A DNA stretch of 64,000 bases from Candidatus Zixiibacteriota bacterium (GTDB lineage: Bacteria > Zixibacteria > MSB-5A5 > UBA10806): NCBI GenBank assembly GCA_024641335.1, contig JAHEDG010000001.1, forward strand, positions 46,910 to 110,909. Reading direction: 5' to 3'. Positions 17,932 to 53,542 of this stretch are shown one piece after another. Under the pieces are notes generated by a model, which saw only the letters and a list, made by a program, of their open reading frames with translations, did no database searches and had not been told where the DNA came from. How positions within the stretch are numbered: position 1 is the stretch's first letter; the number at the start of each line of letters is the position of its first letter. Both the position numbers and the translations under genes were made by a program.

Positions 17932-17938
17932 TCAATTA

Positions 17939-21403: not shown

Positions 21404-21418
21404 TGGCACGGAAATTGT
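21404..21418 (+). promoter_or_regulatory. Candidate sigma-54 (-24/-12) promoter: TGGCACG-N4-TTGT
   Basis: Perfect -24 element TGGCAC. The -12 element is TTGT (consensus TTGC) at the correct spacing, about 40 nt upstream of the 21457 start and directly downstream of the NtrC-type activator gene. Confidence 0.45.
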
Positions 21419-31700: not shown

Positions 31701-34683
31701 TCCTGTTTATGACACATTAAGCGGATTCGCCGATACCCTGGAAATCCAGCAGGCGTCGAATATAGGGTATGTCGCCGGATCACTCAACCGCGATACTCTC
31801 TCGACCGGGGAATGGTACTCCTTATCATTTAGAATCAGCAATACCGGCGATGCCGGGTTCGGAGTTCTGGATAGTTCCTTTATATATTTTACCGATACCG
31901 TCCGGGAATTTATGGCCCCGATATCCAGCGGAGTTTATGTTCCTCCGAATACTCCTTCGGGGATCCTGGCTGTTATGGATTCCGCTCTGGTCGATCCTTT
32001 ATTTGGCGAGGGGATTTACCAGGCTCAATTCATTTATTACGGCCGGGAGAACGGTCATTTTATATCCGGCTCGTTCCCGCTCAACGATTCGATCAGAATT
32101 CAGGCAAGCGCGGATATTTCTTATATAACCGGCTCTCTGAATATCGCTTCCCTGGTTCCGGGACAAAACGCTTTGTTTTCCATCCGGGTTCATAACTCCG
32201 GAGCGGCTTCGTTTATTGTGGATCATCAGAACACCAGGTTTTATTTTACCGATTCGGTCAGGGATTATATCGCCTATGCCGATACATCGTCGGGCAACAG
32301 GGTCGATATGATTACCTCTGATACCACCATACATTTTGCCCAGGCGGTGCTGCATTCGCAGTTTTCCTCGGGGATATATCAGCCCGGCATAAATCTGCGA
32401 GGGACCCAGAACGGAATATATAAGAATTTAACCCTTAATTCCTCGCCAGATTCCGTTTTGGTATCTTCCCGCGGGACATTAAGAATCGACACGACTTACA
32501 TAATGACCCGCAACGCTCCCTTCGCCAATATATCCCAACCTTGTTCATTGCTGGTCAGTGTTTCCAACGGCGGGGAGGAGGGAATAGATAATTTCGCCAT
32601 TAATCTTTTTACCGACGGCGGTTCCACAGTTCCCGCGCCGTTTACCGTCGCCCATCTCAACGGTCTGAGCTCGATCGATACGATATTTCAGATCACCTCC
32701 GGGGCGGCGCCTGATTCGAGCGAGATATTCTCAAGCTCCATATCCGGCGGGTCAGGAGAGATTATCGGACTTCCGCCGCCGATCCTTCCGCCGCTCGATA
32801 ATTACGCCCTGCTGGTTATAGAGACACCGGCAGAGCTGGCTCTTTCGCCCATAGATATTGTCTCGCCTCCGGAAGCGATGGACGACACGGTTACTATCGG
32901 GCAGAACCTTATCATTTCGGCTTCGGCAGCCAATCTCGGACAGGCCGATATTACGGGGGTTCAAAGTCTCACTCTCGATCCGGGATCGACAGGGTTCATC
33001 ATTAACGGGCCGGCGTCCCAGACTTTTATTCTCGATCAGGATCTGTTCTGGAATATAACCGCGCCCCCAAACCCGGTCAGCCTGGCCGTATTGACCATAC
33101 GTTTTACGTCATTTCCATTCGATCGCAACGACGGTTCCTCGTCGGTGGGAGCGGATTCGGTTTCCACTCGAACTTTCGAAATTGATACCAGCCCCGCGAT
33201 CAGTCAGAGTCCGGCCGTCACCGCCCCGGCCGGGGCAGTCGACCGGTTAATCTCTACCGATCAGACATTTGCCCTGACTGATACACTTGACCCGCTCGGT
33301 ATCTATTCCGGTCTTTCGGCGCTTATCGAGCTTCCCGCCGGTTTTACCACGCAAGATTCGCTTTTAAAACATCCTTCCGGGAATATTGTTCGCTGGACTT
33401 TAAGAGCTCCGTCAGTTCCGATGGATGATTCTGTGGCTGTGCACAGCTGGCTTTTCGATACCAATACCGGCGATTCAGTCGGGACAGCGGTCGATTATAT
33501 CGTCTTATCGACGGTACGGCGGGCCGATCTGAATATATCATCGAGGATAGCCGGTCCGCAGGCGGCGTTGGACGGCATCCTCGAACCGTCCTCGGAGCTG
33601 TTGTTCTCGGCCAGGGTAGATAATAACGGTACGGCCGCGGCAGGTACAGGCCGATTGCTTTTACATTTAGGCAGCCCCGATATGATCTCTCAGGAGCCGC
33701 TGGTCAGGGATTTCACCCCAGGCGTACCGGTACAATGGACCATTACGGTTCCGGATACCGAAAGCGTGGTTCCGATACCGATCTGGGCCACCATAGATTC
33801 CATACCTGATGACGTGAACAGTAATCTGCCGTCATTCGTATCCAATGATCTTTCCGGTGTCACTGTGACAGTGAAGGAGCTGCTGCCTCAAATGGCTGTT
33901 ATCCCCCGCGCGGCCTATTCGGGATCGGTGGTCAAAGGGCAGGAGTTGGTTTTTCTTTCATTCGCCATACGTGACAGGGACAGGGGAGGTTCCTATTCAG
34001 TGGGAGTGCTCGAATTAAGTTTCGGTTTACATTCCAGCCCGGTGGCGGATATTTACAGTCTTTTCTCCAGCGCGTCTCTAAGCTGGGATGCATCGTTCGT
34101 GGAAGCCGCGACCGGAACACCCGGGTTGATGAGTTTTGTTTTCCCGGATACCATTGTTCTGGGGCCGGGAGAGACCATAGAATTCGATCTTAATATCACA
34201 ATTTCCGACAGCGCCCCGGCCGTGGACTTTTCGCTGGCTCTGGATGGGGAGGATATCTTAGGGGTTGCTTTCGATAACGGCATCCCCACAGCCGGATTGA
34301 TCGGCGTCTCCTCAACCGGAGACCCATTGCTCTGGGAAGGGAATCCCACGGTTATTCTCGATGCCGATTTCTCCTCTTCGGTATCCAGCTATCCCAATCC
34401 GTTTAATCCCGATAACGAGGCGGCCAAAATAGGATATTACCTGGCGGCCGCTTCTGATCTTGAAATTAGAATATTCACCCTGCTCGGCGAACTGGTATGG
34501 ACGAAGAGTATCGGCAAAAGCGACGCTCTTGGCGGAGCGGGTCTGCATACCGGGGATTCGGCATTATTATGGTACGGCAAGAACGATTCCGGATATGAGA
34601 TTAATTCCGGAGTTTATATCTGCATAATAAAAAATATTACTACCGGCGAGGAGGAGAGATTCAAAATCGCGGTCGTAAAATAA
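28735..34683 (+). CDS. Giant (1982 aa) cell-surface protein with repeated Ig-like modules and T9SS-type C-terminal sorting domain
   Basis: Signal peptide. About three repeated modules 'G(Y)P(E/D)S(R/T)TAG...V(Y/F)D(V/I)..N.KT(D/N)(Y/F)L...(F/W)..SSDTLA..PY'. C-terminal 'SYPNPFNP...GELVW...WYGKNDSG...SGVYICII...FKIAVVK' matches the Por secretion tail. Confidence 0.75.
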   Translation: MLRNLVRKSVLMVAFFCVFCIIFTGLTAAESKSVHKVLFSPDRPVTGSLRIEFPDNRLKPLFAYAATADGRFPASAPVVTADAINLELPSDRGAVTGVVILAESGLPDPDFSRLRILSGGRALKGFFSWYDGLSLDVLNSVTDSLALAEVGASDTHKIGFTTSSLALSDSAIIWVTFPGGFDISAIGTAIYSDNDPANNGNEPQVASWDSVGQTVKFFLNSGAQPAVVGSRISVVFSPVTNDTAAGSFTVVALTTDSLGNIENGPDVSAPFNLNPSALDHIAISPSAPISIPADSSVLFDVSGADIYNNIIDTLTFAYALTVDSCGQVSDGIFTAIKVGACYLTASTGGITDSSGLITVVPGQIGRFGLSGYPESRTAGVGFINPINVKVYDVRENIKTDYLGEMWFTSSDTLATLPYNSVSRYTFTVGDQGQHNFAGSGFTLRTAGNMYIMATNGPVTDSTAFIRVNSAVIDTFLFSVVASQTAGYSFNLQVVSAYDQFNNPASGQVIVSFSGGTGGNSPDGIPPSLNNINVTSGNGSALQTLTNAVPTILEGSVSGAMSIGDTILVAPGNLGRFTLDGYPDSTTAGNVFPNPGIDATVFDIFGNLKTNFLDSVYFESSDTLAVVPYTGSGNSKYKFVSADSGSHIFPGAGFILKTSNEQDISITNGTIADTSNNIMVWPGPINSFILFAPIPPVTAGTPFQVTVNNCRDQWANPTGGTVTVTDSVGGGSSPNGTPPIFNSIRVVSGAGSAYQTLVNMVTTVLSGASGSIVRVTDSVYVLPGSSLGVLDLNITTPQVNATPFTGTADLTAYDTYGNLKTNFDASSDNITISSSAGGVMQNNLFDQAGDFVGGVVDLVARGTSFNGRGGVMTFSAASNSGVIGISDPVDMRAISCDSLLINEAIVSWGDTATGIAWVTNDGGAPVDITDIDVYTESGTTLNPVSITPALPHTLGPGLDNAYNIAIEIPIGFTPGIYPLTAAVAGAFGIYPVYDTLSGFADTLEIQQASNIGYVAGSLNRDTLSTGEWYSLSFRISNTGDAGFGVLDSSFIYFTDTVREFMAPISSGVYVPPNTPSGILAVMDSALVDPLFGEGIYQAQFIYYGRENGHFISGSFPLNDSIRIQASADISYITGSLNIASLVPGQNALFSIRVHNSGAASFIVDHQNTRFYFTDSVRDYIAYADTSSGNRVDMITSDTTIHFAQAVLHSQFSSGIYQPGINLRGTQNGIYKNLTLNSSPDSVLVSSRGTLRIDTTYIMTRNAPFANISQPCSLLVSVSNGGEEGIDNFAINLFTDGGSTVPAPFTVAHLNGLSSIDTIFQITSGAAPDSSEIFSSSISGGSGEIIGLPPPILPPLDNYALLVIETPAELALSPIDIVSPPEAMDDTVTIGQNLIISASAANLGQADITGVQSLTLDPGSTGFIINGPASQTFILDQDLFWNITAPPNPVSLAVLTIRFTSFPFDRNDGSSSVGADSVSTRTFEIDTSPAISQSPAVTAPAGAVDRLISTDQTFALTDTLDPLGIYSGLSALIELPAGFTTQDSLLKHPSGNIVRWTLRAPSVPMDDSVAVHSWLFDTNTGDSVGTAVDYIVLSTVRRADLNISSRIAGPQAALDGILEPSSELLFSARVDNNGTAAAGTGRLLLHLGSPDMISQEPLVRDFTPGVPVQWTITVPDTESVVPIPIWATIDSIPDDVNSNLPSFVSNDLSGVTVTVKELLPQMAVIPRAAYSGSVVKGQELVFLSFAIRDRDRGGSYSVGVLELSFGLHSSPVADIYSLFSSASLSWDASFVEAATGTPGLMSFVFPDTIVLGPGETIEFDLNITISDSAPAVDFSLALDGEDILGVAFDNGIPTAGLIGVSSTGDPLLWEGNPTVILDADFSSSVSSYPNPFNPDNEAAKIGYYLAAASDLEIRIFTLLGELVWTKSIGKSDALGGAGLHTGDSALLWYGKNDSGYEINSGVYICIIKNITTGEEERFKIAVVK

Positions 34684-34787
34684 TACCGGCTGCCTTTCTC
34701 CTGGCGGCCGCGGTATTTTCCACAGTCCATTCACAGGGGGATTCGGGCCGGGAATCGCCGTTCTCCTTAGGCGCCGGGGCCAGAGGT

Positions 34788-36515: not shown

Positions 36516-36602
36516 ACTTTACATGCTCCCGGCTTATTCCTAATATTAACGGCGGAGGTTTATTGTAGAAGTATGGCCAGAAAGCCGATAAAAGAGGTTT
36601 TC

Positions 36603-39488
36603 ATGAGCTTTCCCGCAGACGAGGGACAGCTCGAGGATATCCGAAGCAGCATACGCAATGTCCTGACGGAATCCGATCTTTCCAGCAAGGATATCAACGG
36701 CGTACTCCTTGCTATTGAGGAAGTCTGTACCAATGTCATCAGGCACGCTTATCTCTATGGCCCCGGAACTATCAGGATAAAAGTAAAACTGTACCATGGG
36801 CGGGTCTCTTTCTCCATATTCGATAAAGGCCGCAAATTCGATTACGATCATTCCGAAACCCCTGATCTGAACCGCTATATCAAAACCGGCCGCAAAGGCG
36901 GCCTGGGGTTATATCTGATCCGCAAGATGATGGATTCTGTGGAGTATTATTCCCGCGATGGCGAAAACGAACTGCGTATGGAAAAACAGGCCGACAAACA
37001 ACCGTCGAGAACTATCAGGGCTCCGGGCGTTTCCATCAGGGTGAAATTTTCTCTATGGGCGTCGCTGGTCGTCTTCGCCATCGTTACCAGCGTATTTATC
37101 TACATAGATAAGAGAACCGCCGAAGGAGCCACGGCCAGATTCTTCAAAGGCGCCTCCGATGTCATGGATTCATTTGTTTCCGATATCGGCGATAAGATCA
37201 TCTTCAAGGATGTAGATCTCTCCAAATCTGCCGAAGCCTGGCTGAAAGCCAATGAAAGTTTCACTTACCTGGTAGTAACCGATACTTCCGCGACTATAAT
37301 CGCCGATCCTAATAATCCCCGGAAGTTTCTCTCCAGATATGAGCCTATCCCCGAAAGCTACTATAACAACGACATAGCGGTTCAGGATTCATCGGGTATA
37401 AAAGCGTTCCATTACAAGAACACGGTGAAGCTCAACAACAATATCGTCGGATACGCCTATTTCGGAATTCTGGAATCTCCTCTGTTGGTGGAAATCGCCA
37501 ACGCCCGGCGGGGGTTATTTATAATCGCCATATTCGGTTTGATTGCCGGTTTCGTGGCGGTCTTCATGCTATCCAATTATTTTGTGAAACCGATTCAGAA
37601 GCTTACCGAAGGGGTGCTGAGAATAGGCGACGGCAATCTCGACCAGACCCTGCCGGTGGAGGGCGCCGATGAGTTTGCCGAGATAGCTATGGCATTCAAT
37701 GAGATTACCAACAAGTTCAAAAAATCGCAGGTAAACCTGGTCGAACAGGAACGTCTGCAAAAGGAAATGCAGGTGGCCCAGGAAATCCAGCATGCCCTTT
37801 TGCCTCGCAAATTTCCGGATGTCGAAGGGTACGATATCTCCACTATCTACCGGGCGGCCAAGGACGTGGGCGGAGATTATTTCGATTTCGTCAGGATCGA
37901 CGAGCATTCCATGGGGATAATCGTGGCCGACGTTTCCGGTAAAGGTGTTCCCGGGTCTCTGGTTATGACCATGATTCGAACGGCCCTGCGTTTGGAGTCG
38001 AGAGAAAACTATTCTCCCACATCCATCCTGAGCAAGGTTAACAAGTTCGTGGCCGACGATGTCAAGAAGGGAATGTTCATTACCATTTTCTTTATCACTC
38101 TGGATTCCCGAAAACGAACTATCTCTTACGCTTCCGCTGGTCATAATCCCATGATTCTATTCAGGAAAGATACCAATTCCTGCTATTTCCTCAATACCCG
38201 CGGAATGCCGCTGGGGATAAGCCTGCCGGACGATATCGCCTTTGAGGATTCTCTCCAGCATGACAGTGTCAAGCTGAAGAAAGACGATATGCTGGTGATC
38301 TACACCGATGGTATTACCGAGGCGATGAATAATTCCGGTCAGCAGTACGGCAACGACCGTCTGATCGAATTCATAAAAGCCAATTCCGAACTTCATCCTG
38401 AAGAGTTCACCAAAAAATTAGATGCCGATATCAACCGGTTTACTGCCGGAGCGCCGCAAAACGATGATATCACCCTGGTTGTGATTAAGGAAAAGATCAT
38501 GCTCGACGAGATAGTTTTCCAGCAGAGAAAACGTTTGATCGAGATGGTCGAATATGAGGGTATTTCAGCCGAGGATGCCTGCAAGGAGGCCGGGGTTTCC
38601 ATTTCGACCTATTATAAATACCGCCGCCGCTGGCAGAGGCTGGGTGACGCGGGATTACTGGATAAGAAGCTCAGGGCCGATTCCGGCATGAAGCAGATTC
38701 CCTATGAGGCTCGCAAGGAGATCCTCAATATAGTCAGAACTCACCCGGAATTCGGGGCCAAGAGAATAATCGATGAGGCTCGGAAAAACGGGATAGCTGA
38801 TCTGGATATGCGCGGTTTAAGCGAAGAGCTGACTCGCATGAGACTCAACACCAAAAAACTCCGTCTGGAATATGTGGAGAGAATGGGAGCTATGTCTCCC
38901 GATATGAGAGCGGAACTCGATAAGGAGATACTCAAGGATAAGGAGAAGAAAGAGCAGATCGACCGCGACGCCTATCTCGAGCAGATCAAGAAAAGCATCA
39001 GCGATAAGGCCCTGGAGGTTCCGCAGGGCTCCGATGAGGAACTCGAAAAGCTCAAGAGCCTGGAAACTGCTTTAGGAGATACGGGACTGTACAGCGATAT
39101 AGCCTCCGAACTGGGCAAACTCGGAGGAGGAAAAGATATCGCCGGTCTTTTCGAAAAGATGATACTGAAAATGGCCGAAGCTAAAGTGGATGAGGCTGAA
39201 ACCAGGGGAAATCCGGCCGAAGAAACAAATGATCAGGCGGCCGATCTGAACGTCTCAGAGTCGAAGGATAGCTTCCCGTCTCCTGAAGAGCCGAAAGAAA
39301 CAGGCGATTCCGAAGACAATGCCGGAAAACAGCCCGAGTTGGCGCCACAAACCCTGCCGGAATCGGACGCCACGCCTATCGACGTGGTCGACGCTGCTTC
39401 AGAGAATGACAATGCCGGCGAAGAAGAAGAACAGTTGGATTGGGACAATTACAGCAAAAAGCTTCAGGAAAAATTCGATAAAAAATGA
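36603..39488 (+). CDS. Multidomain membrane signalling protein: RsbW-like anti-sigma Ser/Thr kinase (HATPase) + TM + periplasmic sensor + TM + HAMP + PP2C/SpoIIE phosphatase + transposase-like HTH + acidic tail
   Basis: N-terminal 'LLAIEEVCTNVIRHAY...GGLGLYLIRKMMD' (HATPase_c_2). Two TM segments flank a ~130-aa loop. HAMP 'IQKLTEGVLRIGDGNLDQTL'. PP2C 'GGDYFDFVRIDEHSMGIIVADVSGKGVPGSLVMT...DMLVIYTDGITEA'. HTH 'GISAEDACKEAGVSISTYYKYRRRWQRLGDAGLLDKK...HPEFGAKRIIDE'. Start at 36603 (AAAGAGG RBS) is preferred over the track start 36573. Confidence 0.7.
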   Translation: MSFPADEGQLEDIRSSIRNVLTESDLSSKDINGVLLAIEEVCTNVIRHAYLYGPGTIRIKVKLYHGRVSFSIFDKGRKFDYDHSETPDLNRYIKTGRKGGLGLYLIRKMMDSVEYYSRDGENELRMEKQADKQPSRTIRAPGVSIRVKFSLWASLVVFAIVTSVFIYIDKRTAEGATARFFKGASDVMDSFVSDIGDKIIFKDVDLSKSAEAWLKANESFTYLVVTDTSATIIADPNNPRKFLSRYEPIPESYYNNDIAVQDSSGIKAFHYKNTVKLNNNIVGYAYFGILESPLLVEIANARRGLFIIAIFGLIAGFVAVFMLSNYFVKPIQKLTEGVLRIGDGNLDQTLPVEGADEFAEIAMAFNEITNKFKKSQVNLVEQERLQKEMQVAQEIQHALLPRKFPDVEGYDISTIYRAAKDVGGDYFDFVRIDEHSMGIIVADVSGKGVPGSLVMTMIRTALRLESRENYSPTSILSKVNKFVADDVKKGMFITIFFITLDSRKRTISYASAGHNPMILFRKDTNSCYFLNTRGMPLGISLPDDIAFEDSLQHDSVKLKKDDMLVIYTDGITEAMNNSGQQYGNDRLIEFIKANSELHPEEFTKKLDADINRFTAGAPQNDDITLVVIKEKIMLDEIVFQQRKRLIEMVEYEGISAEDACKEAGVSISTYYKYRRRWQRLGDAGLLDKKLRADSGMKQIPYEARKEILNIVRTHPEFGAKRIIDEARKNGIADLDMRGLSEELTRMRLNTKKLRLEYVERMGAMSPDMRAELDKEILKDKEKKEQIDRDAYLEQIKKSISDKALEVPQGSDEELEKLKSLETALGDTGLYSDIASELGKLGGGKDIAGLFEKMILKMAEAKVDEAETRGNPAEETNDQAADLNVSESKDSFPSPEEPKETGDSEDNAGKQPELAPQTLPESDATPIDVVDAASENDNAGEEEEQLDWDNYSKKLQEKFDKK

Positions 39489-40228
39489 TAAAACTGGCAA
39501 TTCTGACTTCCAAAGGCGGTACCGGCAAGACAACGACCGCTATTAACCTCGGACATGGTCTGGCTTTATCGGGAAAACGGGTATTGCTTGTGGACTGCGA
39601 TCCCCAGGGATCGGCGTCCTCCGCTTTCAATGTCAATTCCGATAAAGGGCTGGTCGATCTGATGATGAATAACACGGCGGATATCTTTAAGGTCCGGCCG
39701 AATTTCTATCTTTTGCCATCCGGCCGCAAGAGGCTGGCCGATCTGGAGATGAAAATAGCCGCCATGCCGGATCGGAATAATATCCTCAGCAGGTCTCTTT
39801 CCCGGCTTTCGGGGTGCGATTATGTAATTTTAGATTGCTCTCCGTCGATAAATGTCATAAATTTAAACGCCTTAGAATATGCCGATTACTTATTGATCCC
39901 TTCTTCGCTGGATTACTTTTCGCTGGAAGGGGTCAAGACGACGATGGAGATAAAGAGAGAAATGAGCGCTGGCAGGAACGGATCCCTTGAGATTGTCGGA
40001 GTATTGCCGACATTTTATGATAGGAGGACGACTATTTCCAGACTGGCCCTGGAGAATCTCAGGGATAATTACGGTGATATGGTGCTAACCACGGAAATTA
40101 GAAACAATGCTCAGATAAAAAAGTCTCAATGGCATCGGAAAACAATATTCGAGTACGCCCCTTACTCCTACGGCGCATACGATTATTTTAACCTGTCAAA
40201 GGAGATTTTGGAAAGGCTGGGGGATTAA
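39485..40228 (+). CDS. ParA/MinD-family P-loop ATPase
   Basis: Deviant Walker A 'KGGTGKTT'. 'LLVDCDPQGSAS' and 'VILDCSP' motifs. ATGA overlap with the upstream gene. Confidence 0.85.
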   Translation: MIKLAILTSKGGTGKTTTAINLGHGLALSGKRVLLVDCDPQGSASSAFNVNSDKGLVDLMMNNTADIFKVRPNFYLLPSGRKRLADLEMKIAAMPDRNNILSRSLSRLSGCDYVILDCSPSINVINLNALEYADYLLIPSSLDYFSLEGVKTTMEIKREMSAGRNGSLEIVGVLPTFYDRRTTISRLALENLRDNYGDMVLTTEIRNNAQIKKSQWHRKTIFEYAPYSYGAYDYFNLSKEILERLGD

Positions 40229-40234
40229 AAAGCT

Positions 40235-40954
40235 ATGAGCGATATCAAGATATCTCTGGACAGTTCCGCTTCGGAAGGAGCTATCTCGGTAGTCAGGGTG
40301 GACGGGGTTATCGATACCATGACCGCCCCGGAGTTGGAAAAAGTCATGAACTCCCTGCTGGAGCAACGGAAATATAATATCATTGTCGATCTGGGAGGGG
40401 TTGACTATATCTCCTCGGCCGGTTGGGGTATATTTATTTCCAATATCCGGGAGATCAGGCAAAATGCCGGGGATATTAAGTTGGCCAGGATGATCCCCAA
40501 TGTCTATGAGATATTCGAGCTTCTGGAATTCGATTCTATTCTCAGAGCGTTCGATACGCTGGAGAAGGCCAAAAATGACTACGATGCGGCCGGAGGTAAA
40601 ATACCAGTCTCCACAGCGGTGGCTGCCGGACAAATCTCGGGCCAGGCTTCGCCCGAATCCAAACCCGCTGATCCGGCCGTTCCGCTGACCCCCATAGACG
40701 ATGGGAGTCCGAAGGAGTTTTCCGGTTCCAAGCCTCAAATGGCTCCGTCGTCGCCCGGAATTCACGCGGTGGTTCTCGAGCTGGTCAATAAGGACCCGTT
40801 TTTCAGCATCTCCGAAATAAAGAATGAGGTCAACAGAAGACAGCCGCAGCATAAGGCCGGGTGGTGGAAGATATGGTCGATTCTCAAGGAACATAAACTC
40901 CTTAGCAAGAAAAGCCGATATCGCAGAGCGAGGACCCAATCCGGGGATAAGTAA
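40235..40954 (+). CDS. STAS-domain anti-sigma-factor antagonist (SpoIIAA/RsbV-like) with ~120-aa C-terminal extension
   Basis: STAS core 'ISVVRVDGVIDTMTAPELEKVM...IIVDLGGVDYISSAGWGIF' with the conserved phosphorylatable Ser in 'YISSAG'. Pro/Ser-rich linker followed by a basic C-terminal segment. Confidence 0.75.
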   Translation: MSDIKISLDSSASEGAISVVRVDGVIDTMTAPELEKVMNSLLEQRKYNIIVDLGGVDYISSAGWGIFISNIREIRQNAGDIKLARMIPNVYEIFELLEFDSILRAFDTLEKAKNDYDAAGGKIPVSTAVAAGQISGQASPESKPADPAVPLTPIDDGSPKEFSGSKPQMAPSSPGIHAVVLELVNKDPFFSISEIKNEVNRRQPQHKAGWWKIWSILKEHKLLSKKSRYRRARTQSGDK

Positions 40955-42777
40955 TGAGTAATTCCCCCCTGTCCAAGGCTTATATAGCCCTGTTTATTAT
41001 ATTAGGCGCGGTATTGCCCGCGGTCATTTATTTTGCCCCGTCTTTTTCGATTGCCGCCGGATTGGGGGCAGGGATATTGATTGTCATGGTTTCGATATCG
41101 TTAAGCCTGCTGAAAACAGTCCGGGAATCGGCGCTTGTCAGCAGTTTGTATGACCACGAACGCGCTCGGGAATGGTCGCTGGCCCCGAAGCTTTTATCCG
41201 AGATTGCCGCTGATAACGGCCAGAATAAGCGGCTGGATTTAAAGATCGCGGAATTGCTGAAAGATAAGTTTCAGTTTGCGAATTTCGCCATATTCTTCAG
41301 GGAGGGGCAGAAGTATGAACCCTGGGTTTACTCCGGCATATCTTCCCGCCGCCTCGGTTCTCCCAAGGCCTTTCTTTTAAGGCAGTATTTCAGAGGAATT
41401 AAGGAAAACGGCTCGGTTTCGACCGACGAGAGAATCCTGAGGCTGCTGTTTAAAAACCACTCCGATGACGATTTTGAATTTTCCTATTCCTTCGTCTATC
41501 AATGGGATCGCTCCCGGTCAATTATTCTGGTTGCCGGAAAGCCGGCGGATCTTATGGCCGACGCTTTGAAAAGCCCTGACTTTAACAGGACTTTATGGCC
41601 GTTTCTGGATTCCCAGCTGCGTCAGGGGATGTATCACGAAAAAATCCAATCGGAGCTCAAACGGCAGAGAAACGGCTATTCCCAAACGAAACGGGAGAAC
41701 GCCGATCTCAATAAAGAACTTAATAACAGGCTTTTGAATTTAAATTCATTTGTAAAAATATCCGGCGACCTATATTCTATTTTCAATGAGGATCAATTGT
41801 TCGCCACGCTGAAGGAAGTTGTCAAAGGCCAGCTGGGAGCCGATAAAACCGGGATTCTACATCCCACCGGCGAGGGTCATTTTGCTCTGGACGACGGTGA
41901 CATACAGCCCGAATTGAAATTAATATTGGATTCCGAATCGGAATTTTTCAGTTTGCTGGCTAAAAATCCCAAGCCGGTGCTTTTGCCTCTGGCTGCTTCA
42001 GGACTCAAGAAGGACGAGCCGTTTATCAGCGCGGCGTTGGGAAATGGTTACCAGGCCGCCTGTTCCATCAGGGTGGGAGACAAGCAGGGAGCGGTTCTTT
42101 TGGTCGGGTCGAAGAACGACAAAACTCCTTATTCTCAGTTCGCCCTCGATTCCCTTTCCATTATCACCAATATCGCCTCGCTGGCCCTGGAGAATATCAG
42201 GCAATATTCCACTATAGAGAAACTCTCTTATACCGACAGCATGACCGGGATCTACAACTACCGTTATTTTTATAAACGACTCAGCGAGGAAATTCTCAGA
42301 TCCAAAAGGTATGACCGTGAACTTTCGCTGGTGATTCTGGACATAGACAATTTCAAGATATTCAACGATAACTACGGCCATCAAACCGGCGATTTGATCT
42401 TAAAGCAGATATCGCGTCTGATCATGGAGACCATACGATCCATCGACGTGGTCAGCAGGTACGGCGGGGAGGAATTCTGTATAATAATGCCCGATACCGG
42501 CGAGGATAACTGCAATATTTTTATCGAGAGATTGAGAAATGAGATCGCTAATTTCAAATTCAAGTCCGAATCTGTCGATGTCAAAACGCCGGTTACGGTC
42601 TCGGTCGGAGGGGCGATATTTCCAGGGCACGCCGAAACTCCGGACAGAATTATCTATTGCGCCGACATGGCCCTTTTGAAAGCCAAATCGATGGGGCGTA
42701 ATAAAGCCATAATGTTTCAACCGGGGCTTTTGGAACAGGAGAAATCCTCAATTGGGAGGTTCGATGATAACTTATAG
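40954..42777 (+). CDS. Membrane-anchored GGDEF diguanylate cyclase with N-terminal sensory region
   Basis: Two N-terminal TM helices and a ~380-aa cytoplasmic region. GGDEF domain with active site 'RYGGEEF' and I-site 'RSID' five residues upstream. Confidence 0.85.
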   Translation: MSNSPLSKAYIALFIILGAVLPAVIYFAPSFSIAAGLGAGILIVMVSISLSLLKTVRESALVSSLYDHERAREWSLAPKLLSEIAADNGQNKRLDLKIAELLKDKFQFANFAIFFREGQKYEPWVYSGISSRRLGSPKAFLLRQYFRGIKENGSVSTDERILRLLFKNHSDDDFEFSYSFVYQWDRSRSIILVAGKPADLMADALKSPDFNRTLWPFLDSQLRQGMYHEKIQSELKRQRNGYSQTKRENADLNKELNNRLLNLNSFVKISGDLYSIFNEDQLFATLKEVVKGQLGADKTGILHPTGEGHFALDDGDIQPELKLILDSESEFFSLLAKNPKPVLLPLAASGLKKDEPFISAALGNGYQAACSIRVGDKQGAVLLVGSKNDKTPYSQFALDSLSIITNIASLALENIRQYSTIEKLSYTDSMTGIYNYRYFYKRLSEEILRSKRYDRELSLVILDIDNFKIFNDNYGHQTGDLILKQISRLIMETIRSIDVVSRYGGEEFCIIMPDTGEDNCNIFIERLRNEIANFKFKSESVDVKTPVTVSVGGAIFPGHAETPDRIIYCADMALLKAKSMGRNKAIMFQPGLLEQEKSSIGRFDDNL

Positions 42778-43771
42778 CGATAAATCGAATGGCCGCGGTT
42801 TGAGCGCCCGGACGATTATGGGTCTGTTTATGCTGATCTGCTTTATGGCCAGCCCGATTTCACTGCTTCGGGCCCAGACAAGTGATCAGTCTTATATCAT
42901 CGGAGTCGGCGATATCCTGACTATATCGTTCTGGCAGGAGCCAGAACTCAATACGGCGGCCAGGGTCGGGGAAGACGGGATGATTACCCTGCCGGTAATT
43001 GGCGATATCAAGGCCGGAGGACTTTCCACCTCGAGATTGTCGAAAAATATAGTGGAGCAGATGACATTTTACCATACTCCCATTTCTCAAGCTACGGTAG
43101 TGGTAACCGAGTATCATTCCAGGTACGTGGTGGTGACCGGAGAGATCACCAACCCGGCCACTCAAAGCTATGAAAAAATCCCGGATCTCTGGAGAGTGAT
43201 TCTCGATGCCGGAGGACCTACCAGCATGGCCGATCTATCCCATGTAACCATAATCCGGAAAGTCGGCGATAAATCCGAGGTTCTCAATGTCAATATGTAC
43301 GATATAATCAGGAGCGGCGATCTCGGCCGGGCTCCTGAACTTAAGCCGGGAGACCTGGTTAATGTCCCGACCTCATCCCTGGGCGTAGCTTTCGATCTCG
43401 GCAAGGGTTCTAAATTCGAAGGCAAGAATATTTATTATGTCCTCGGTAATGTTTTAACGCCCGGCGTGCGGAACCTCGAAGATGGAATGGACGTATTAGA
43501 TGCCATAACCGCGGCCGGAGGGTATACGCCCGAGGCAGATTTGAAAAATGTCAGGGTGATTGTAAAGGGCACGACTTATTCCAGCATCGTGAAATTGGAT
43601 ATGGAAAAATATATCGAGCAGGGTTCGCCGGCCAGATTAGTTCTCGGCCCGGAGGATACGGTAGTTATCCCGGCCAGGAGATCAAACGCTTTTTCAGGCG
43701 CCTTGAACGCGGCCATACAGATTATCCCGTTGATAACGGCCTTAGGGACTTTGGTCCTTTTATCGAGATAG
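42764..43771 (+). CDS. wza: Polysaccharide export outer-membrane protein (Wza-like; Poly_export + SLBB)
   Basis: 'YIIGVGDILTISFWQEPELNTAARVGEDGMITLPVIGDIKAGGLS' Poly_export motif. Repeated SLBB-like segments. GGGAGG RBS before the ATG at 42764. Confidence 0.8.
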   Translation: MITYSDKSNGRGLSARTIMGLFMLICFMASPISLLRAQTSDQSYIIGVGDILTISFWQEPELNTAARVGEDGMITLPVIGDIKAGGLSTSRLSKNIVEQMTFYHTPISQATVVVTEYHSRYVVVTGEITNPATQSYEKIPDLWRVILDAGGPTSMADLSHVTIIRKVGDKSEVLNVNMYDIIRSGDLGRAPELKPGDLVNVPTSSLGVAFDLGKGSKFEGKNIYYVLGNVLTPGVRNLEDGMDVLDAITAAGGYTPEADLKNVRVIVKGTTYSSIVKLDMEKYIEQGSPARLVLGPEDTVVIPARRSNAFSGALNAAIQIIPLITALGTLVLLSR

Positions 43772-43777
43772 GAATAT

Positions 43778-45361
43778 TTGAGCAACTCCGAAAAACAGGT
43801 TGATATCAGGGAATACTGGGGAGTAATCGTCAGGCGCAAAGCCGTACTTATTTTGCCCTTGATTATTGTCCCGCTGATCGCGCTGGCCGCCAGTTATTTT
43901 CTCGCGCCGGTATATATGTCGTCGGTCAGTATTATGCTCGGGGAATCACGGATTCTGCCCCCATCGGTGGAACGTCAACTCGAAGGACAGCCGTCTTATT
44001 CGAGAATCTCCAATCTGGAAAGGCAGAGGTCATACCAGAACCAGATAACTTCCACCAAATACCTGCGGCGGCTTATAGCCGTACTTGATATCCCCATAAA
44101 CGACCAGATCAGGCAGGTAGCGGCTCAAACCAAAGCCCTATACCCTGAAATCTCCGAGAACGAACTGGCCGAGACTATCCTGGCCAACGGTCTCGGGAAA
44201 AATGTAGTAGTCGAGCTCAGCGCCCACGATCTGCTTCAGATCTCATTCGAGGCTTCCGACCCGGTTTCGGCTCAGAAGAGAGCCAAGGCCCTGGCTGATA
44301 TCTTTATCGAGGAGAGCCTGGCTAACGAACTGGCCGGGATCAGATCGAATATCACTTTCTCGGAAGAACAACTGGCATTTTATCGGGATAAACTGAAAAC
44401 CGCCGAGGAGAAACTGACCAATTTCCGTCAGCAGCTTTTGGTCAGCGGGGTGGCGGAAGATACCAGCGGATACAGTCTGCTGCAGATAGTTTCTGCGGCC
44501 GAGGCTCTGGATCTGGAGATCTCTGTTCAGGAGAGTAAACTGCTCGATTTGCGGGCGAAGATGATTTCGGATAAGGTCGATGTCGGCAAGCTGAATATCC
44601 CCAATGAGCTGCAGGCGGCCAAAGATCAACTTTTGAAAACTATAAGCAAGCTGACCGATCTTATAACCAAACACAGCTGGCGCGATCCCAAGGTCCTGAA
44701 TCTCAATGAGGAAGCCAGAATCATGCTGGCCGATCTCAATACCAGAATCAAGGGGGACGTGAACCGCAGATACGCCGATCGTTCGGAATCGATCAGGGAT
44801 AATATCGCCGCTTATCTGATCGGGCAGTTGAATCTCGATTTCAACCGGGAAAAAAGGATTACTCTGGATAAAAGCATCGGACGGATAAAATCCCAGCTTT
44901 CGAAAAATCCGGATTCAGAAATTACCATGGAGCGGCTGCGCAGCGAAATCGATAATTACAAAACCCTTTATGATCTTTTCGTGCAGCATTCCCAGTACGC
45001 CGCCATAGATCAATCGGCCAAGAAAGTTGAGGCCGAAGCCAAGTATATTATTATAAAGCCGGCGTCTCTTCCGCTGATCCCTGAGTTCCCCAATAAAATC
45101 AAGCTTCTGCTAATGGGTTTTGTACTCGGTTTGATATTGGGGGGAGGAGTGATCCTTCTTTTGGAGATCATCGACAGCTCGTTTAAGAAAGTAGAGGATG
45201 TCGAGGAATATCTGAAGCTAAGGGTGGTCGGAACTATCCCGAAAATCGCTCTGCCTTACGGTTCAGGGTTTAAAAAGAAAATACCTGTTTTGATCGGCGC
45301 CGGTATAAGTTTTATTTTGGTGCTTTTGATCATATTTTTAAATTTTAGGAAGAACGGTTAA
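43778..45361 (+). CDS. Polysaccharide co-polymerase (Wzz/Wzc-like chain-length determinant, no kinase domain)
   Basis: N-terminal TM, long coiled-coil periplasmic region, and a C-terminal TM with 'PASLPLIPEFPNKIKLLLMGFVLGLILGGG' (GNVR-like). Confidence 0.75.
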   Translation: MSNSEKQVDIREYWGVIVRRKAVLILPLIIVPLIALAASYFLAPVYMSSVSIMLGESRILPPSVERQLEGQPSYSRISNLERQRSYQNQITSTKYLRRLIAVLDIPINDQIRQVAAQTKALYPEISENELAETILANGLGKNVVVELSAHDLLQISFEASDPVSAQKRAKALADIFIEESLANELAGIRSNITFSEEQLAFYRDKLKTAEEKLTNFRQQLLVSGVAEDTSGYSLLQIVSAAEALDLEISVQESKLLDLRAKMISDKVDVGKLNIPNELQAAKDQLLKTISKLTDLITKHSWRDPKVLNLNEEARIMLADLNTRIKGDVNRRYADRSESIRDNIAAYLIGQLNLDFNREKRITLDKSIGRIKSQLSKNPDSEITMERLRSEIDNYKTLYDLFVQHSQYAAIDQSAKKVEAEAKYIIIKPASLPLIPEFPNKIKLLLMGFVLGLILGGGVILLLEIIDSSFKKVEDVEEYLKLRVVGTIPKIALPYGSGFKKKIPVLIGAGISFILVLLIIFLNFRKNG

Positions 45362-45364
45362 TTT

Positions 45365-46483
45365 ATGTCCGGCACAGGTTACTCCGATAAAATAAAACAT
45401 CTCGACCGGGAGTATCTCGTTCAAACTTCAATCAACGGTCAAACCCGGTCTATCAATGTTTCTATTTTCCATTCCGGGCAGCTGATAAGCGGTCGGGTTT
45501 TTCCGCACCCTGATAATCTGGACGATCAGGGTCTGGCTGAATACACCCTGGAAATTCACAGACAATATCGCGCTGATTTCGCTTCGCTACTCGGCCTGAT
45601 CGAAAAAATGAAAGAATCTGACCGCCCGGATATCATAGGCAAAATAGGTATGACACTTTATTCTCGGAAACTCTATAACGAGGGACTGGAATTACTGGCA
45701 TCGGCGGTGGAGAAGCACCCTGAGAATTCCGGGCTGAAAATGATCATGGGGAAATTGCTTTTGGCTACCGGACGGTTCGCGGAGGCTCAGGCAAGCCTCA
45801 AATCTGCGGTGGATCTTTCGCCGGAATATCCCGATTACAGGAATCTTTTGGGCGTTGCCTGCCTCAGATCCGAAAAGCCCGTGGAAGCTATTGCCCAATT
45901 CAAGAAGGCGGTGGAGTTGAATATCTATTTCGACCAGGCTCATTTCAATCTCGGACTGGGGTATATTCTTAACGGCATAGTCAAAGAGGATTTCGAACTG
46001 GCCAGAAATCTCAAGGCAAACAGCATCGAGGCGTTCGGCAAAGCGGCCATGTTTAATCCCCGCCTGATCTGCGACGAGTATAAAAAGGGGCTGGCTCTGC
46101 TGGAAGAAGACAAACTGGAAGAATCATTCGCCATTCTTGCCGATATAGCCGAAAATCCCGATATCGAATCGCCCAAAGAAAGACTGATGGAAATGTACTT
46201 GCGGTATGTTCATGGCGAAAACGGTGTAACGGAAGATGGAATCAAAGATTATATCGAGAAAATTCAAAATCTCCTGAAAGCCAGCCCGGCTTACGCCGAT
46301 TTGCAGAATGAACTGGGTATGGCCTATACCATAATGGGGAAATTCATGAGAGATAAGGCTATCGAACACTTCAAAAAGGCGCTCGATGTCAATCCGCGTT
46401 TTTCCCGCGCCAATAAAAATCTGAGGCTTTCGGAGAACGACTTGAAAGGTTTCGAGGTGCTTCTGGAGGCTATCCTCAAATGA
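45365..46483 (+). CDS. TPR-repeat protein
   Basis: Several TPR-like repeats ('AIAQFKKAVELNIYFDQAHFNLGLGY', 'AIEHFKKALDVNPRFSRANKNL'). Confidence 0.7.
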   Translation: MSGTGYSDKIKHLDREYLVQTSINGQTRSINVSIFHSGQLISGRVFPHPDNLDDQGLAEYTLEIHRQYRADFASLLGLIEKMKESDRPDIIGKIGMTLYSRKLYNEGLELLASAVEKHPENSGLKMIMGKLLLATGRFAEAQASLKSAVDLSPEYPDYRNLLGVACLRSEKPVEAIAQFKKAVELNIYFDQAHFNLGLGYILNGIVKEDFELARNLKANSIEAFGKAAMFNPRLICDEYKKGLALLEEDKLEESFAILADIAENPDIESPKERLMEMYLRYVHGENGVTEDGIKDYIEKIQNLLKASPAYADLQNELGMAYTIMGKFMRDKAIEHFKKALDVNPRFSRANKNLRLSENDLKGFEVLLEAILK

Positions 46484-47187
46484 ATCACATAAAGAACAAA
46501 CCATCCATAATATCGCTCTATGATAAGGAATCGGCGGTAGCCACCGAACTGCGCAGAATAGTCTCGAATCTGAAATCGGTCGGCGAAAACAAAATCCGCA
46601 GTCTGCTGGTGACATCAGCTACTGTGGCTGAGGGCAAATCCATTACCAGCTGTTATCTCGGGATTACCGCCGCCAGCCTGATGCAGGCTAAGGTCGCCGT
46701 GATCGATTTCGATTTACGCAAGCCGAGAATCCACGAATATTTCGGTATTGCTCCCGATGGCGGTTTGGCCGATGTTCTCTCCGGAAAAGCCGGCATCAAG
46801 AATGTTTCCAGGTCTACGGGAATTCCCAATTTATCAGTCATCACCGCGGGAAAAGTCAGCTCTTTGCCGACCGATATTCTGGATAGAGGAGATATCCCGG
46901 CCTTGTTTCAGGAGTTAAAGTTCTATTTCGATTTCATTGTTATCGATTCACCGCCGGTGATCCCGGTTTCCGATCCCCTTCTTTTAGCAGACAATGTCGA
47001 CGGTGTATTGATAGTTATCAGAGCCGGATCCACCCAACGGGAAGTGGTCAACCGAGCCGCCAATCTTTTGCGGAACGCAGGCAGTAATATCGTTGGAGTT
47101 GTCCTCAACGACTATGAAGACGTCCTTCCTTATTATTATAAGGACAGGTATTACGGTTATCATTACTCCGATAAGAAACCAGGATAA
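46480..47187 (+). CDS. Bacterial tyrosine-protein kinase (BY-kinase, CpsD/CapB-like cytoplasmic ATPase)
   Basis: Walker A 'SATVAEGKS', A' 'VAVIDFDLRKP', B 'DFIVIDSPP'. C-terminal tyrosine cluster 'YYYKDRYYGYHY'. Confidence 0.85.
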   Translation: MNHIKNKPSIISLYDKESAVATELRRIVSNLKSVGENKIRSLLVTSATVAEGKSITSCYLGITAASLMQAKVAVIDFDLRKPRIHEYFGIAPDGGLADVLSGKAGIKNVSRSTGIPNLSVITAGKVSSLPTDILDRGDIPALFQELKFYFDFIVIDSPPVIPVSDPLLLADNVDGVLIVIRAGSTQREVVNRAANLLRNAGSNIVGVVLNDYEDVLPYYYKDRYYGYHYSDKKPG

Positions 47188-47706
47188 TCAGATCCGTTAA
47201 ATTATCCGCATGCATTCTTTTTGCAATGTTTTGCATAATGGAATTATATGATCTATGTTTTAGTATTGGCCGCAATTATCGTTTTGGATCTGGGGAGCCT
47301 CCCTGTATTTTTGTGCCACCATAAGGTGTTATAAGATATAAAGATATAAGCGTTAAAATTATCTTGGGCGGTTAGATATATATTCTTTTGTCAAGACAGC
47401 GTTGTGGCAGCGAATTTGCGATTACATTTCCATAATTAAGGTGAAACTAATTTTGGAGAGTAATTTTTGAGATACCAAAGTCCTGTCGCAAATCCACTAG
47501 CCCACTACTGGGAAGAAGAGTTTATAGGGTTTTGGGGTCAATGGCTGAGATTCCGTGCAGGATCTCAACGGTTGCTCTACTATTTTCTCGGTGAGTTGGT
47601 ATTTGCCAATATCTATCTGCTTTTGGAGAGTATTGCCAACCATACCGTTATCTCCGCAGGACATTCGATAATCGTCAGGGTAAAATATAAACTTCACCCA
47701 TCGGTA

Positions 47707-48366
47707 ATGGTCAAAAGGGCTCTTGATATCGCCGGATCGCTGGTCGGTCTGGTTATCAGTCTTCCGTTTTGGCTAATAATACCGGCACTCATCAAACTCG
47801 ACAGCCCCGGGCCGATCTTTTATACGCAGGTTAGGGTAGGACGTAACCGTCGGAGAGCAAGCCGTCGCCATGTGGCCGTGGAAGCTCCTCAGAAGCGCGG
47901 CCGCGGTGATCGTCGTCAGGAATCGGGATTTGGCAAGCCGTTTAGAATAATCAAATTCAGGACTATGAAACTGGATGCCGAAAGTCAATCCGGCCCTGTC
48001 TGGGCTACCAAGAGCGATCCGAGGATTACCAGAATCGGACGTATTCTCAGAAAGACCAGAATAGATGAAATCCCTCAGCTTCTCAATGTGTTGACCGGAG
48101 AGATGAGCATTGTCGGACCTCGCCCGGAGAGGCCGTATTTTGTGGCCAGGCTCGATGGCGTTGTAGAAAATTACCTGGAACGTTTCAATGTCAAGCCGGG
48201 AGTTACCGGTCTGGCGCAGGTCGAGCATAAATATGATGAGAGCATCGATGACGTAAGCCGCAAAACCAGGTATGATCTGCGGTACATCAGAAGCTGGAGC
48301 GTTATCCAGGATATCAAGATCATGCTTAAGACGGTGATTGTTGTTATTAGCGCTCGCGGAATGTAG
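47707..48366 (+). CDS. Polyprenyl-phosphate sugar-1-phosphate transferase (Bac_transf family, small WbaP/EpsL-like) with Arg-rich insertion
   Basis: 'MVKRALDIAGSLVGLV...PGPIFYTQVRVG', 'KFRTM', 'DEIPQLLNVLTGEMSIVGPRPERP'. The track ORF extends to 47467, but family alignment supports the Met at 47707. Confidence 0.8.
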   Translation: MVKRALDIAGSLVGLVISLPFWLIIPALIKLDSPGPIFYTQVRVGRNRRRASRRHVAVEAPQKRGRGDRRQESGFGKPFRIIKFRTMKLDAESQSGPVWATKSDPRITRIGRILRKTRIDEIPQLLNVLTGEMSIVGPRPERPYFVARLDGVVENYLERFNVKPGVTGLAQVEHKYDESIDDVSRKTRYDLRYIRSWSVIQDIKIMLKTVIVVISARGM

Positions 48367-52996: not shown

Positions 52997-53012
52997 CGTA
53001 ACGAATTCGAAC

Positions 53013-53044
53013 GGGGGACGGTATTCCGTCCCCCGATTTTTTTT
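53013..53044 (+). terminator. Rho-independent terminator between the two pilin genes
   Basis: GGGGGACGG-tatt-CCGTCCCCC hairpin followed by T8. Confidence 0.85.
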
Positions 53045-53075
53045 AGCCGGTTTGACCGGATAAATTGGAGGAAAT

Positions 53076-53501: not shown

Positions 53502-53542
53502 TTTTCTCGCGGCTGTTCTCAGCTATTTACTTTTTTTATAGA

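Follow-up and report, generated by a model that had tools for sequence, protein, structure and literature searches.

A 64,000-nucleotide stretch of DNA from a Candidatus Zixiibacteriota bacterium (hereafter the window) encodes, in four consecutive plus-strand genes at 36573–42777, a membrane-bound kinase–phosphatase fusion protein, a ParA/MinD-type ATPase, a STAS protein and a GGDEF diguanylate cyclase. We propose, at a probability of about 0.6, that this module is a membrane-embedded partner switch, in which the fusion protein would set the phosphorylation state of Ser61 of the STAS protein and, in Zixibacteria, would feed into cyclic di-GMP (c-di-GMP) signalling and exopolysaccharide export. 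The gene and domain content, the intact catalytic motifs, the synteny with related loci and the homology between helix-turn-helix (HTH)-like domains on the fusion and STAS proteins are directly observed. The kinase, phosphatase and STAS components of an RsbW/RsbV/RsbU-type partner switch are all present, and no sigma-70 family gene was found among the window ORFs of at least 150 aa.

36573–39488, plus strand: fusion protein gene, an open reading frame (ORF) of 971 aa
39485–40228, plus strand: ParA/MinD-type ATPase gene, ORF of 247 aa
40235–40954, plus strand: STAS gene, ORF of 239 aa
40954–42777, plus strand: GGDEF cyclase gene, ORF of 607 aa

The fusion and ParA-type genes overlap by 4 nt, the ParA-type and STAS genes lie 6 nt apart, and the STAS and cyclase genes overlap by 1 nt (TAATG). 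The first-pass annotation had described four tightly packed genes at these positions, and the ORFs agree with it, with overlaps and a gap of 1–6 nt. Domains were assigned with Pfam and NCBIfam at curated cut-offs, and every domain it had named (kinase, HAMP, PP2C, ParA, STAS and GGDEF) has a Pfam score far above the cut-off.

Architecture of the fusion protein and its STAS partner

From its N-terminus, the 971-aa fusion protein comprises an RsbW-type serine kinase, a first transmembrane segment (TM1), a periplasmic Cache-like sensor, a second transmembrane segment (TM2), HAMP, a PP2C phosphatase, a tandem HTH and an acidic tail. These regions, and the main regions of the STAS protein and the cyclase, are as follows.

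36609–36986, plus strand: kinase domain HATPase_c_2 (PF13581), aa 13–138, Pfam 100 bits
37026–37595, plus strand: TM1 (aa 152–180), sensor (aa 181–310) and TM2 (aa 311–341), from hydropathy
37569–37703, plus strand: HAMP, aa 333–377, Pfam 45 bits
37902–38489, plus strand: PP2C/SpoIIE (PF07228), aa 444–639, Pfam 171 bits
38502–38885, plus strand: tandem transposase-type HTH, HTH1 aa 644–695 and HTH2 aa 711–771, matched by HTH_28/HTH_23/HTH_32 (aa 651–740)
38898–39485, plus strand: C-terminal tail, aa 776–971, helical and then disordered, net charge −27
40415–40417, plus strand: codon of Ser61 of the STAS protein, predicted phospho-acceptor from the HMMER alignment to SpoIIAA
40751–40939, plus strand: HTH-like domain at the C-terminus of the STAS protein, a homologue of HTH2 in the fusion protein
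42229–42705, plus strand: GGDEF domain of the cyclase, aa 426–584, Pfam 148 bits, preceded by a hydrophobic N-terminus (aa 4–57) and a variable middle region

The kinase domain carries an N-box (EEVCTN, aa 49–54), a G1 box (D84xG86) and a G2 box (GGLG, aa 109–112), and its sole sequence match in the PDB is Bacillus subtilis RsbW (E = 1.1e-12). It had been placed ahead of the first transmembrane helix, and the hydrophobic segments at aa 152–180 and 311–341 do follow it. The sensor region is modelled by AlphaFold2 (AF2) as an alpha/beta domain, with a predicted local distance difference test (pLDDT) score above 90 over aa 160–330; the sCache_3_2 match is weak in the window protein (E = 0.033), and the domain is annotated for many homologues. 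A coiled-coil linker, seen as a helix at aa 367–408 in the AF2 model, connects HAMP to the phosphatase. The latter carries the motifs GGDYFD (aa 433–438), ADVSGKG (aa 452–458), YTDGITE (aa 577–583) and NDDIT (aa 630–634), and the metal-binding PP2C Asp residues D435, D438, D453, D579, D631 and D632 all lie within conserved motifs. Its PDB matches include response-regulator PP2C domains of Pseudomonas aeruginosa (3es2/3eq2) and Rv1364c, and the catalytic motifs of both kinase and phosphatase are conserved in 24 sequences from all lineages. No Response_reg (REC) domain was matched in the fusion protein, the centre of which is occupied by the transmembrane segments, the Cache-like sensor and HAMP, and no single Pfam or NCBIfam model spans the full architecture.

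Fusion proteins of other phyla measure 727–1427 aa, and the tail varies in length and sequence by lineage. Many Zixibacteria tails end in a short conserved basic motif, DWDxYxKKLxxKF. We considered this extreme C-terminus (DWDxYxKKL) as a ParA-activating peptide and rejected it, because divergent Zixibacteria do not conserve the motif although they retain ParA.

In two Deltaproteobacteria (L066 and L070) the parts are encoded by separate adjoining genes for a STAS protein, an RsbW-like kinase (141–145 aa) and a membrane HAMP-PP2C protein (619–658 aa), the kinase and phosphatase genes overlapping by 4 nt in L066. Another lineage (L051) has an unfused sensor-PP2C protein, a STAS protein and a kinase-containing protein, followed by a GGDEF gene. 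The kinase would sit before TM1 because adjoining genes of the kind seen in L066 and L070 fused, and the protein as a whole appears to be a simple gene fusion.

The STAS protein consists of a STAS domain (aa 1–118; Pfam PF01740, 62 bits; TIGR00377 over its cut-off), a disordered linker (aa 119–172) and a basic, four-helix HTH-like domain (aa 173–235). Its STAS fold matches SpoIIAA and RsbV. HMMER pairs YISSAGWG with FMDSSGLG of SpoIIAA, and Ser61, within YISSAG (aa 58–63), is therefore the predicted phospho-acceptor; it aligns to the SpoIIAA phospho-serine, in keeping with the phosphorylatable Ser previously assigned to this motif, and is invariant in nine divergent STAS sequences. The long C-terminal extension that had been described is present, but the folded HTH-like domain at its end had been overlooked, as had the tandem HTH after the phosphatase, which left the domain list of the fusion protein incomplete. 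A profile search with the STAS protein, covering 1.84 billion cluster representatives, returned 144 proteins at E ≤ 1e-30, and also yielded proteins of 600–1500 aa with three to four STAS repeats. A 247-aa antisense ORF (40196–40939, minus strand) mirrors nearly the entire STAS gene; it has no protein-family support and is likely an artefact, as are comparable long antisense ORFs covering other window genes.

With a kinase nearest to RsbW and a STAS domain nearest to SpoIIAA and RsbV, the module could be an anti-sigma switch, in which the kinase would sequester a sigma factor encoded elsewhere and unphosphorylated STAS protein would free it, the cyclase, ParA and export genes being its regulon or chance neighbours. 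Sigma factor genes need no linkage to their regulators. We nevertheless consider this quite unlikely. In line with the earlier statement that no sigma factor is encoded nearby, no sigma-70 family gene was found among ORFs of at least 150 aa in the 64-kb window, and none was noted among the called genes of four related loci. The kinase is also tethered to the membrane, a few residues from TM1, and its fused kinase–phosphatase relatives, SypE and HsbR, have non-sigma outputs as a rule.

The ParA-type protein (Pfam AAA_31, 133 bits, plus a CbiA match) has a deviant Walker A motif with the signature lysine (KGGTGKT, aa 10–16), together with Walker A′ and B motifs (DCDPQ, aa 37–41, and ILDCSP, aa 115–120). 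No NCBIfam model for a named ParA subfamily reaches its cut-off (ParA_partition 95 versus 180; BcsQ 68 versus 158), and no gene for a ParB- or MinE-like partner was found among the window ORFs. Module-linked orthologues occur in Zixibacteria and Krumholzibacteria, and a homologue search with the ParA-type protein yields Zixibacteria module orthologues only, with no new context. The cyclase, predicted to be membrane-anchored, carries GGEEF (aa 504–508), RSID (aa 495–498) five residues upstream and DIDNFKIFND (aa 463–472), so that the GGEEF motif and RxxD I-site previously reported as intact are indeed so; GGEEF, RxxD and the metal- and substrate-binding residues are invariant in eight module-linked cyclases.

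Conservation of the locus and surrounding genes

A profile of the fusion protein was used to fetch 80 homologous loci, one genome per GTDB species, and four further Zixibacteria loci (L081–L084) were added by exact protein look-up. Parts of the module were mapped onto these loci with tblastn and six-frame searches with hidden Markov models (HMMs). The full kinase–PP2C–HTH architecture is present in 52 loci, labelled as Zixibacteria, Krumholzibacteriota, Eisenbacteria, KSB1, FCPU426 and Calditrichota, that is, at least six candidate phyla, with some labels doubtful. The counts below refer to the evaluable loci among these, 47 upstream and 44 downstream.

Giant-protein C-terminus and PorV-like gene directly upstream of the fusion gene: 47/47 loci
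STAS gene within 3.5 kb downstream of the fusion gene: 41/44 loci
STAS protein with HTH-like C-terminal domain: 29/44 loci, in several phyla
ParA-type gene: 13/44 loci (7 Zixibacteria, 6 Krumholzibacteria-type)
GGDEF gene after STAS: 6/44 loci, Zixibacteria only
Homologue of the cytoplasmic TPR protein (window 45365–46483) within 5 kb: 13/44 loci

Within Zixibacteria the order giant protein, PorV-TPR protein, fusion protein, ParA, STAS is constant, so that the arrangement is no accident. The GGDEF gene follows STAS directly, its start codon overlapping the STAS stop codon or nearly so, in L001, L002, L008, L081, L083 and L084 (six of seven evaluable Zixibacteria loci) and in the partial locus L043; it does not in L082. 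Thus the four-gene set as first described recurs in Zixibacteria, but it is not a conserved unit elsewhere, as the ParA and GGDEF counts show. The conserved unit instead reaches further upstream and less far downstream than the four genes, its constant partners being the giant protein, the PorV-like protein and STAS. The core of fusion and STAS proteins is ancient.

Export genes in the order Wza-Wzz-(TPR)-BY-kinase adjoin the module in most Zixibacteria loci, sometimes inverted, and are absent in L081. The exopolysaccharide-locus setting is found in no phylum besides Zixibacteria; outside it, STAS is followed by housekeeping genes (gltX, obg, dprA, and those for aconitase and isocitrate dehydrogenase). 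Six Krumholzibacteria-type loci (L004, L005, L009, L013, L022 and L041) have five STAS paralogues around the ParA and TPR genes (at about 12.6–17 kb in L004), in the order fusion, three STAS, ParA, TPR, two STAS; all paralogues keep the Ser61 equivalent and none has the HTH-like domain. In an Ignavibacteriales locus (L054) and a second Zixibacteria locus (L056), at about 7–12 kb, the giant-protein C-terminus and PorV-like gene stand with STAS and a HAMP-PP2C protein that has neither kinase nor HTH, a set that looks like a reduced relative of the cassette.

The genes on either side of the module in the window are the following.

28735–34683, plus strand: predicted giant secreted surface protein, 1982 aa, with an N-terminal signal/transmembrane segment
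34659–36515, plus strand: PorV/PorQ-family outer-membrane protein with C-terminal TPR repeats (NF033709 PorV_fam, 96.4 bits versus a cut-off of 90)
42752–47187, plus strand: exopolysaccharide export genes, contiguous with the module
42752–43771, plus strand: Wza-like exporter
43778–45361, plus strand: Wzz-like co-polymerase
45365–46483, plus strand: cytoplasmic TPR protein, 372 aa, with no signal peptide or transmembrane segment
46480–47187, plus strand: BY-kinase-type ATPase
47467–48366, plus strand: priming sugar transferase (Bac_transf, Pfam 213 bits), where the biosynthetic part of the exopolysaccharide locus begins

No Pfam family matched the giant protein. Its C-terminal ~130 aa are conserved and resemble the C-terminal domain of type IX secretion system (T9SS) cargo, with a weak match to the C-terminus of PorZ (E = 8.5e-6). 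Read from its first ATG (34788), the PorV-like ORF has no signal peptide. The in-frame stretch upstream of 34788 encodes QNRGRKIIPAAFLLAAAVFSTVHSQ, with no stop codon back to 34602 and no ATG, GTG or TTG. The gene likely begins at ATT 34659, which is preceded by GGAGGAG and would add a signal peptide; this start would overlap the end of the giant gene by 25 nt. The close relative L001 has the same arrangement, and orthologues at a greater distance begin with a canonical Met and carry signal peptides. The strongest terminator-like hairpin of the region (34687–34710; 8 pairs, 7 of them G-C) was considered as an intrinsic terminator after the giant gene and rejected, as it falls within the stretch of the PorV-like gene that encodes the Ala-rich signal peptide.

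Homologues of the cytoplasmic TPR protein directly follow STAS in FCPU426- and Krumholzibacteria-type loci, and the protein could be part of the signalling module instead of the export machinery. A Wzb-like, low-molecular-weight phosphotyrosine phosphatase is encoded at 5069–5563, ~41 kb upstream of the BY-kinase-type ATPase, and may form a functional pair with it despite the distance. Over the first 56 kb of the window nearly all genes are on the plus strand and many are related to the cell envelope, among them TPR and Big_5 proteins and PEGA/DUF5683 and fn3 proteins. A secretin fragment opens the window (2–967), and two tandem type IV pilin-like genes (141 aa each, GFTLIELMIVV) lie directly upstream of a prepilin peptidase gene (A24), together at 52571–54343. 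An HDOD + HD domain protein is encoded at 59282–60604, ~17 kb downstream of the cyclase. Rfam and tRNA scans found nothing.

Some 15 kb upstream of the module, at 17915–21294 (plus strand), lie genes for a histidine kinase (HisKA-HATPase) and an overlapping sigma-54-dependent response regulator (REC-AAA-HTH_8). The pair recalls SypF/SypG of the syp locus, a region that, like the window, contains a sigma-54 activator. A scan for sigma-54 −24/−12 elements gave two intergenic plus-strand sites with one mismatch, TGGCACGGAAATTGT (21404–21418), just upstream of the gene that follows the sigma-54 activator, and TGGCAGCGAATTTGC (47405–47419), just upstream of the priming sugar transferase. Two such sites were found where 1.8 are expected; we therefore rejected sigma-54 promoters, the counts being at or below chance and just the positions of the two best sites suggestive.

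Proposed mechanism and candidate outputs

From homology and synteny we infer which protein phosphorylates which, what the signal would be and what the STAS protein would act on. The RsbW-type kinase, before TM1, and the PP2C phosphatase, after TM2 and HAMP, would oppose each other on the cytoplasmic side of the Cache-like sensor. A signal would move the transmembrane helices and HAMP and so shift the balance between kinase and phosphatase, which in turn would determine the phosphorylation state of Ser61; control of PP2C dimers through HAMP and coiled-coil linkers has been documented (PMC12143880). The core probably monitors cell-surface state, because the giant surface protein and the PorV-like gene always directly precede the fusion gene. 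The reported signalling by the T9SS cargo PorA to PorXY is a conceptual parallel for such surface sensing (PMC12152298).

In Zixibacteria, a ParA-type ATPase and a GAF-GGDEF cyclase would have been added to this core, which stands there at the start of an exopolysaccharide export locus. STAS protein in one phospho-state would then most likely control the cyclase and/or the export machinery, and through them matrix production, as in SypE-SypA, HsbA-HsbD and BgrV-BgrR. An output through c-di-GMP and matrix is plausible because the cyclase gene overlaps the STAS stop codon, export genes follow and the Hsb, Bgr and Sia systems provide precedents. As a general idea, a partner-switching circuit with c-di-GMP output had already been put forward in the first-pass annotation, and it is in good company with HsbA-HsbD, BgrV-BgrR and SiaC-SiaD (PMC8457831, PMC5085249).

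Several observations weigh against this proposal. All sequences are from metagenome-assembled genomes; the full-length AF2 model has a predicted TM-score of 0.39, so its inter-domain contacts are not reliable; and no STAS gene was found near the fusion gene in L027–L029. The cyclase is missing in most lineages that bear the core and in Zixibacteria L082, and is therefore not its ancestral or general target. With its own N-terminal sensory region, the cyclase could be regulated independently. The simple model leaves the roles of ParA, the tandem HTH, the STAS HTH-like domain and the TPR protein unaccounted for, and an unlinked sigma factor is a possible partner of the kinase.

Taken further, the cyclase might answer to a signal of its own, through its N-terminal membrane and GAF-like regions, and be merely another regulator of the exopolysaccharide locus. 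We regard such independence as rather unlikely. It fits the absence of the cyclase from all non-Zixibacteria loci and L082, and also the variability of its N-terminal region (27–49% identity; lengths of 333–607 aa) next to a conserved catalytic domain; the middle region is GAF-like in cyclase homologues, with GAF annotated for the one in L081. Yet the gene lies immediately after STAS, with overlapping or near-overlapping codons, in seven Zixibacteria loci, L051 shows PP2C, STAS, kinase and GGDEF together in an independent lineage, and there are three experimental precedents for control of cyclases by STAS-type proteins (PMC8457831).

The two HTH regions would open a DNA-binding or docking output for which neither cyclase nor ParA is needed. 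In the fusion protein the HTH region keeps the same position and invariant residues in every lineage examined, its helices have pLDDT scores of 84–91, and it also matches the N-termini of IS481/IS630 transposases; transposase-type HTH families are matched in 15–17 of 19 cross-phylum homologues and Sigma70_r4_2 in 7 of the 19. The C-terminal domain of the STAS protein is homologous to HTH2 (hhalign probability 97.3%, E = 2e-11), and HMMs of the two recover each other reciprocally in many loci. It is confidently folded (pLDDT > 90) and strongly basic, with a net charge of +9 in the window protein and a mean of +7.3, and it has a weak match to HTH_Tnp_Tc3_2, the second HTH of the Tc3 transposase (E = 0.0046). 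Beyond the 29 loci listed above, about 50 of the best 150 cluster representatives align over the entire length of STAS and C-terminal domain.

These features are compatible with a sigma-independent route to transcription, in which the tandem HTH and the STAS HTH-like domain would bind DNA. Depending on STAS phosphorylation, the kinase domain or the acidic tail would keep the STAS protein at the membrane or leave it free to regulate the locus; the cyclase and ParA would then be lineage-specific add-ons. In most phyla STAS is followed by housekeeping genes alone, which would require the output to lie in the core proteins or elsewhere in the genome. We put this forward as tentative. STAS proteins of the Krumholzibacteria and FCPU426 types have no C-terminal HTH-like domain, DNA-binding regulators do not usually have their HTH tethered to the membrane, no operator motif was identified, and HTH-like domains can act as protein–protein modules. 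The HTH profile, moreover, gave weak matches against sequences of solved structures (3o60, E = 0.001; TnsB, E of about 0.5). It is doubtful, on present evidence, that the giant surface protein, the PorV-like protein, the fusion protein with its tandem HTH and the STAS protein form an undescribed, sigma-free envelope-to-genome cassette of FCB-type candidate phyla, with the STAS phospho-state deciding between retention at the membrane enzyme (by the kinase domain, the paralogous HTH or the acidic tail) and release to DNA. If they did, transcription would be tied to the state of a giant T9SS-type adhesin.

Alternatively, the STAS C-terminal domain might bind HTH2 or the acidic tail and so tether substrate to enzyme and confer specificity, with ParA, the TPR protein or the export/secretion machinery as post-translational targets. 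Enzyme and substrate do bear homologous domains, and their charges are opposite (+9 for the STAS C-terminal domain, −27 for the tail); docking interactions are reported to set the specificity of PP2C for STAS proteins (PMC11418112). In two phyla the ParA gene is placed among the STAS genes, and in 13 loci the TPR gene follows STAS. There are functional parallels also, as an Anabaena STAS domain directly controls a polysaccharide glycosyltransferase (PMC13555669) and SypA acts post-transcriptionally on an unknown target (PMC3610818, PMC8256260). Both HTHs, however, are retained in fusion proteins of lineages whose STAS proteins have no such domain, and the tail shows little conservation of sequence or length. 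We consider docking rather unlikely. We continue to favour the membrane-embedded partner switch with, in Zixibacteria, an output through c-di-GMP and exopolysaccharide export.

Comparison with known partner switches

The closest published design is SypE of Vibrio fischeri, in which a serine kinase at the N-terminus and a PP2C at the C-terminus flank a central regulatory domain, and which acts on the STAS protein SypA of an exopolysaccharide locus (PMC3610818). Compared by published design, both proteins carry kinase and phosphatase at opposite ends of one chain around a central regulatory module (PMC3610818). The kinase at the N-terminus, earlier taken as novel, is thus already found in SypE, and SypE, rather than HsbR as first proposed, is the nearer analogue. 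Both systems also have a single STAS substrate with a conserved serine, are set inside a polysaccharide locus and have no known sigma factor as target (PMC3610818, PMC8256260). They differ at the centre, where SypE has a receiver and the window protein TM1, a periplasmic Cache-like sensor, TM2 and HAMP, and in the additional tandem HTH, acidic tail, STAS HTH-like domain and inserted ParA and GGDEF genes of the window. To our knowledge, syp has no counterpart of the linkage to giant surface and PorV-like proteins.

HsbR-HsbA-HsbD of P. aeruginosa likewise combines a bifunctional kinase/phosphatase, a STAS protein and a membrane GGDEF cyclase with an I-site, the binding of STAS to cyclase being a prediction in the window; its output is biofilm versus motility (PMC5085249). 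HsbR, however, is a soluble receiver-PP2C-kinase driven by an Hpt phosphorelay, whereas the window protein is a kinase-sensor-PP2C without REC. HsbA also binds FlgM, and HsbD has six transmembrane helices and no GAF-like region, its gene having been acquired near rather than inside the operon. Neither an Hpt nor a FlgM gene was found in the window. SiaABCD, also of P. aeruginosa, is an operon of four genes that encode a HAMP-PP2C protein of the membrane, a kinase, a GGDEF cyclase and a small phospho-switch protein, which activates the cyclase when unphosphorylated (PMC8457831, PMC7647112). Its kinase, SiaB, is a separate protein, its switch protein SiaC is a DUF1987 protein (STAS-like in fold only) phosphorylated on Thr, and it has no ParA or HTH. 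Orthology to SiaA and SiaD is not supported by NCBIfam (SiaA 79 versus a cut-off of 700; SiaD 153 versus 290), and the window switch protein is a STAS rather than a DUF1987 protein.

In the BgrSTUWV-BgrR partner-switching system of Sinorhizobium meliloti, a STAS protein controls a diguanylate cyclase that drives production of a mixed-linkage beta-glucan exopolysaccharide (PMC8457831). The system has separate RsbU-, RsbW- and RsbV-like proteins as well as stressosome-type components, and is not known to include a membrane fusion, HTH or ParA. The Bacillus RsbU-RsbV-RsbW and SpoIIE-SpoIIAA-SpoIIAB systems share the same three catalytic and switch domain families, and Rv1364c of Mycobacterium tuberculosis has phosphatase, kinase and STAS in one chain (PMC12143880). 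Unlike the window module, these control a linked sigma factor; Rv1364c is ordered PAS-PP2C-kinase-STAS, and there are no transmembrane, Cache or HAMP elements between the enzymes and no HTH. In HenR-All4160 of Anabaena PCC 7120, a STAS domain whose phosphorylation depends on a PP2C phosphatase and on kinases directly controls synthesis of a polysaccharide layer (PMC13555669), with the STAS domain fused to a glycosyltransferase there and to an HTH-like domain here, and with the Anabaena kinases unlinked.

Our literature search, whose incomplete coverage makes it weak evidence of novelty, found no description of the full architecture, of Zixibacteria partner switches, of STAS-HTH fusions or of links between T9SS and STAS proteins. 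Partner switches acting on non-sigma targets are an open area; the target of SypA itself is still described as unknown (PMC8256260). The cassette is of interest here as a naturally ‘labelled’ switch, with a homologous HTH-like domain on enzyme and substrate, and its lineage-specific additions (ParA, GGDEF and the TPR protein) mark candidate targets. Its strict linkage to giant surface and PorV-like proteins across uncultured phyla suggests a conserved coupling of surface state to signalling and, for Zixibacteria, the module predicts how matrix production is switched. Set against SypE-SypA and the other systems above, the kind of system is known and no single element is unprecedented; what is new is the layout, and the interest lies in the conserved cassette and the HTH-bearing switch proteins more than in the link to the cyclase emphasised at first.

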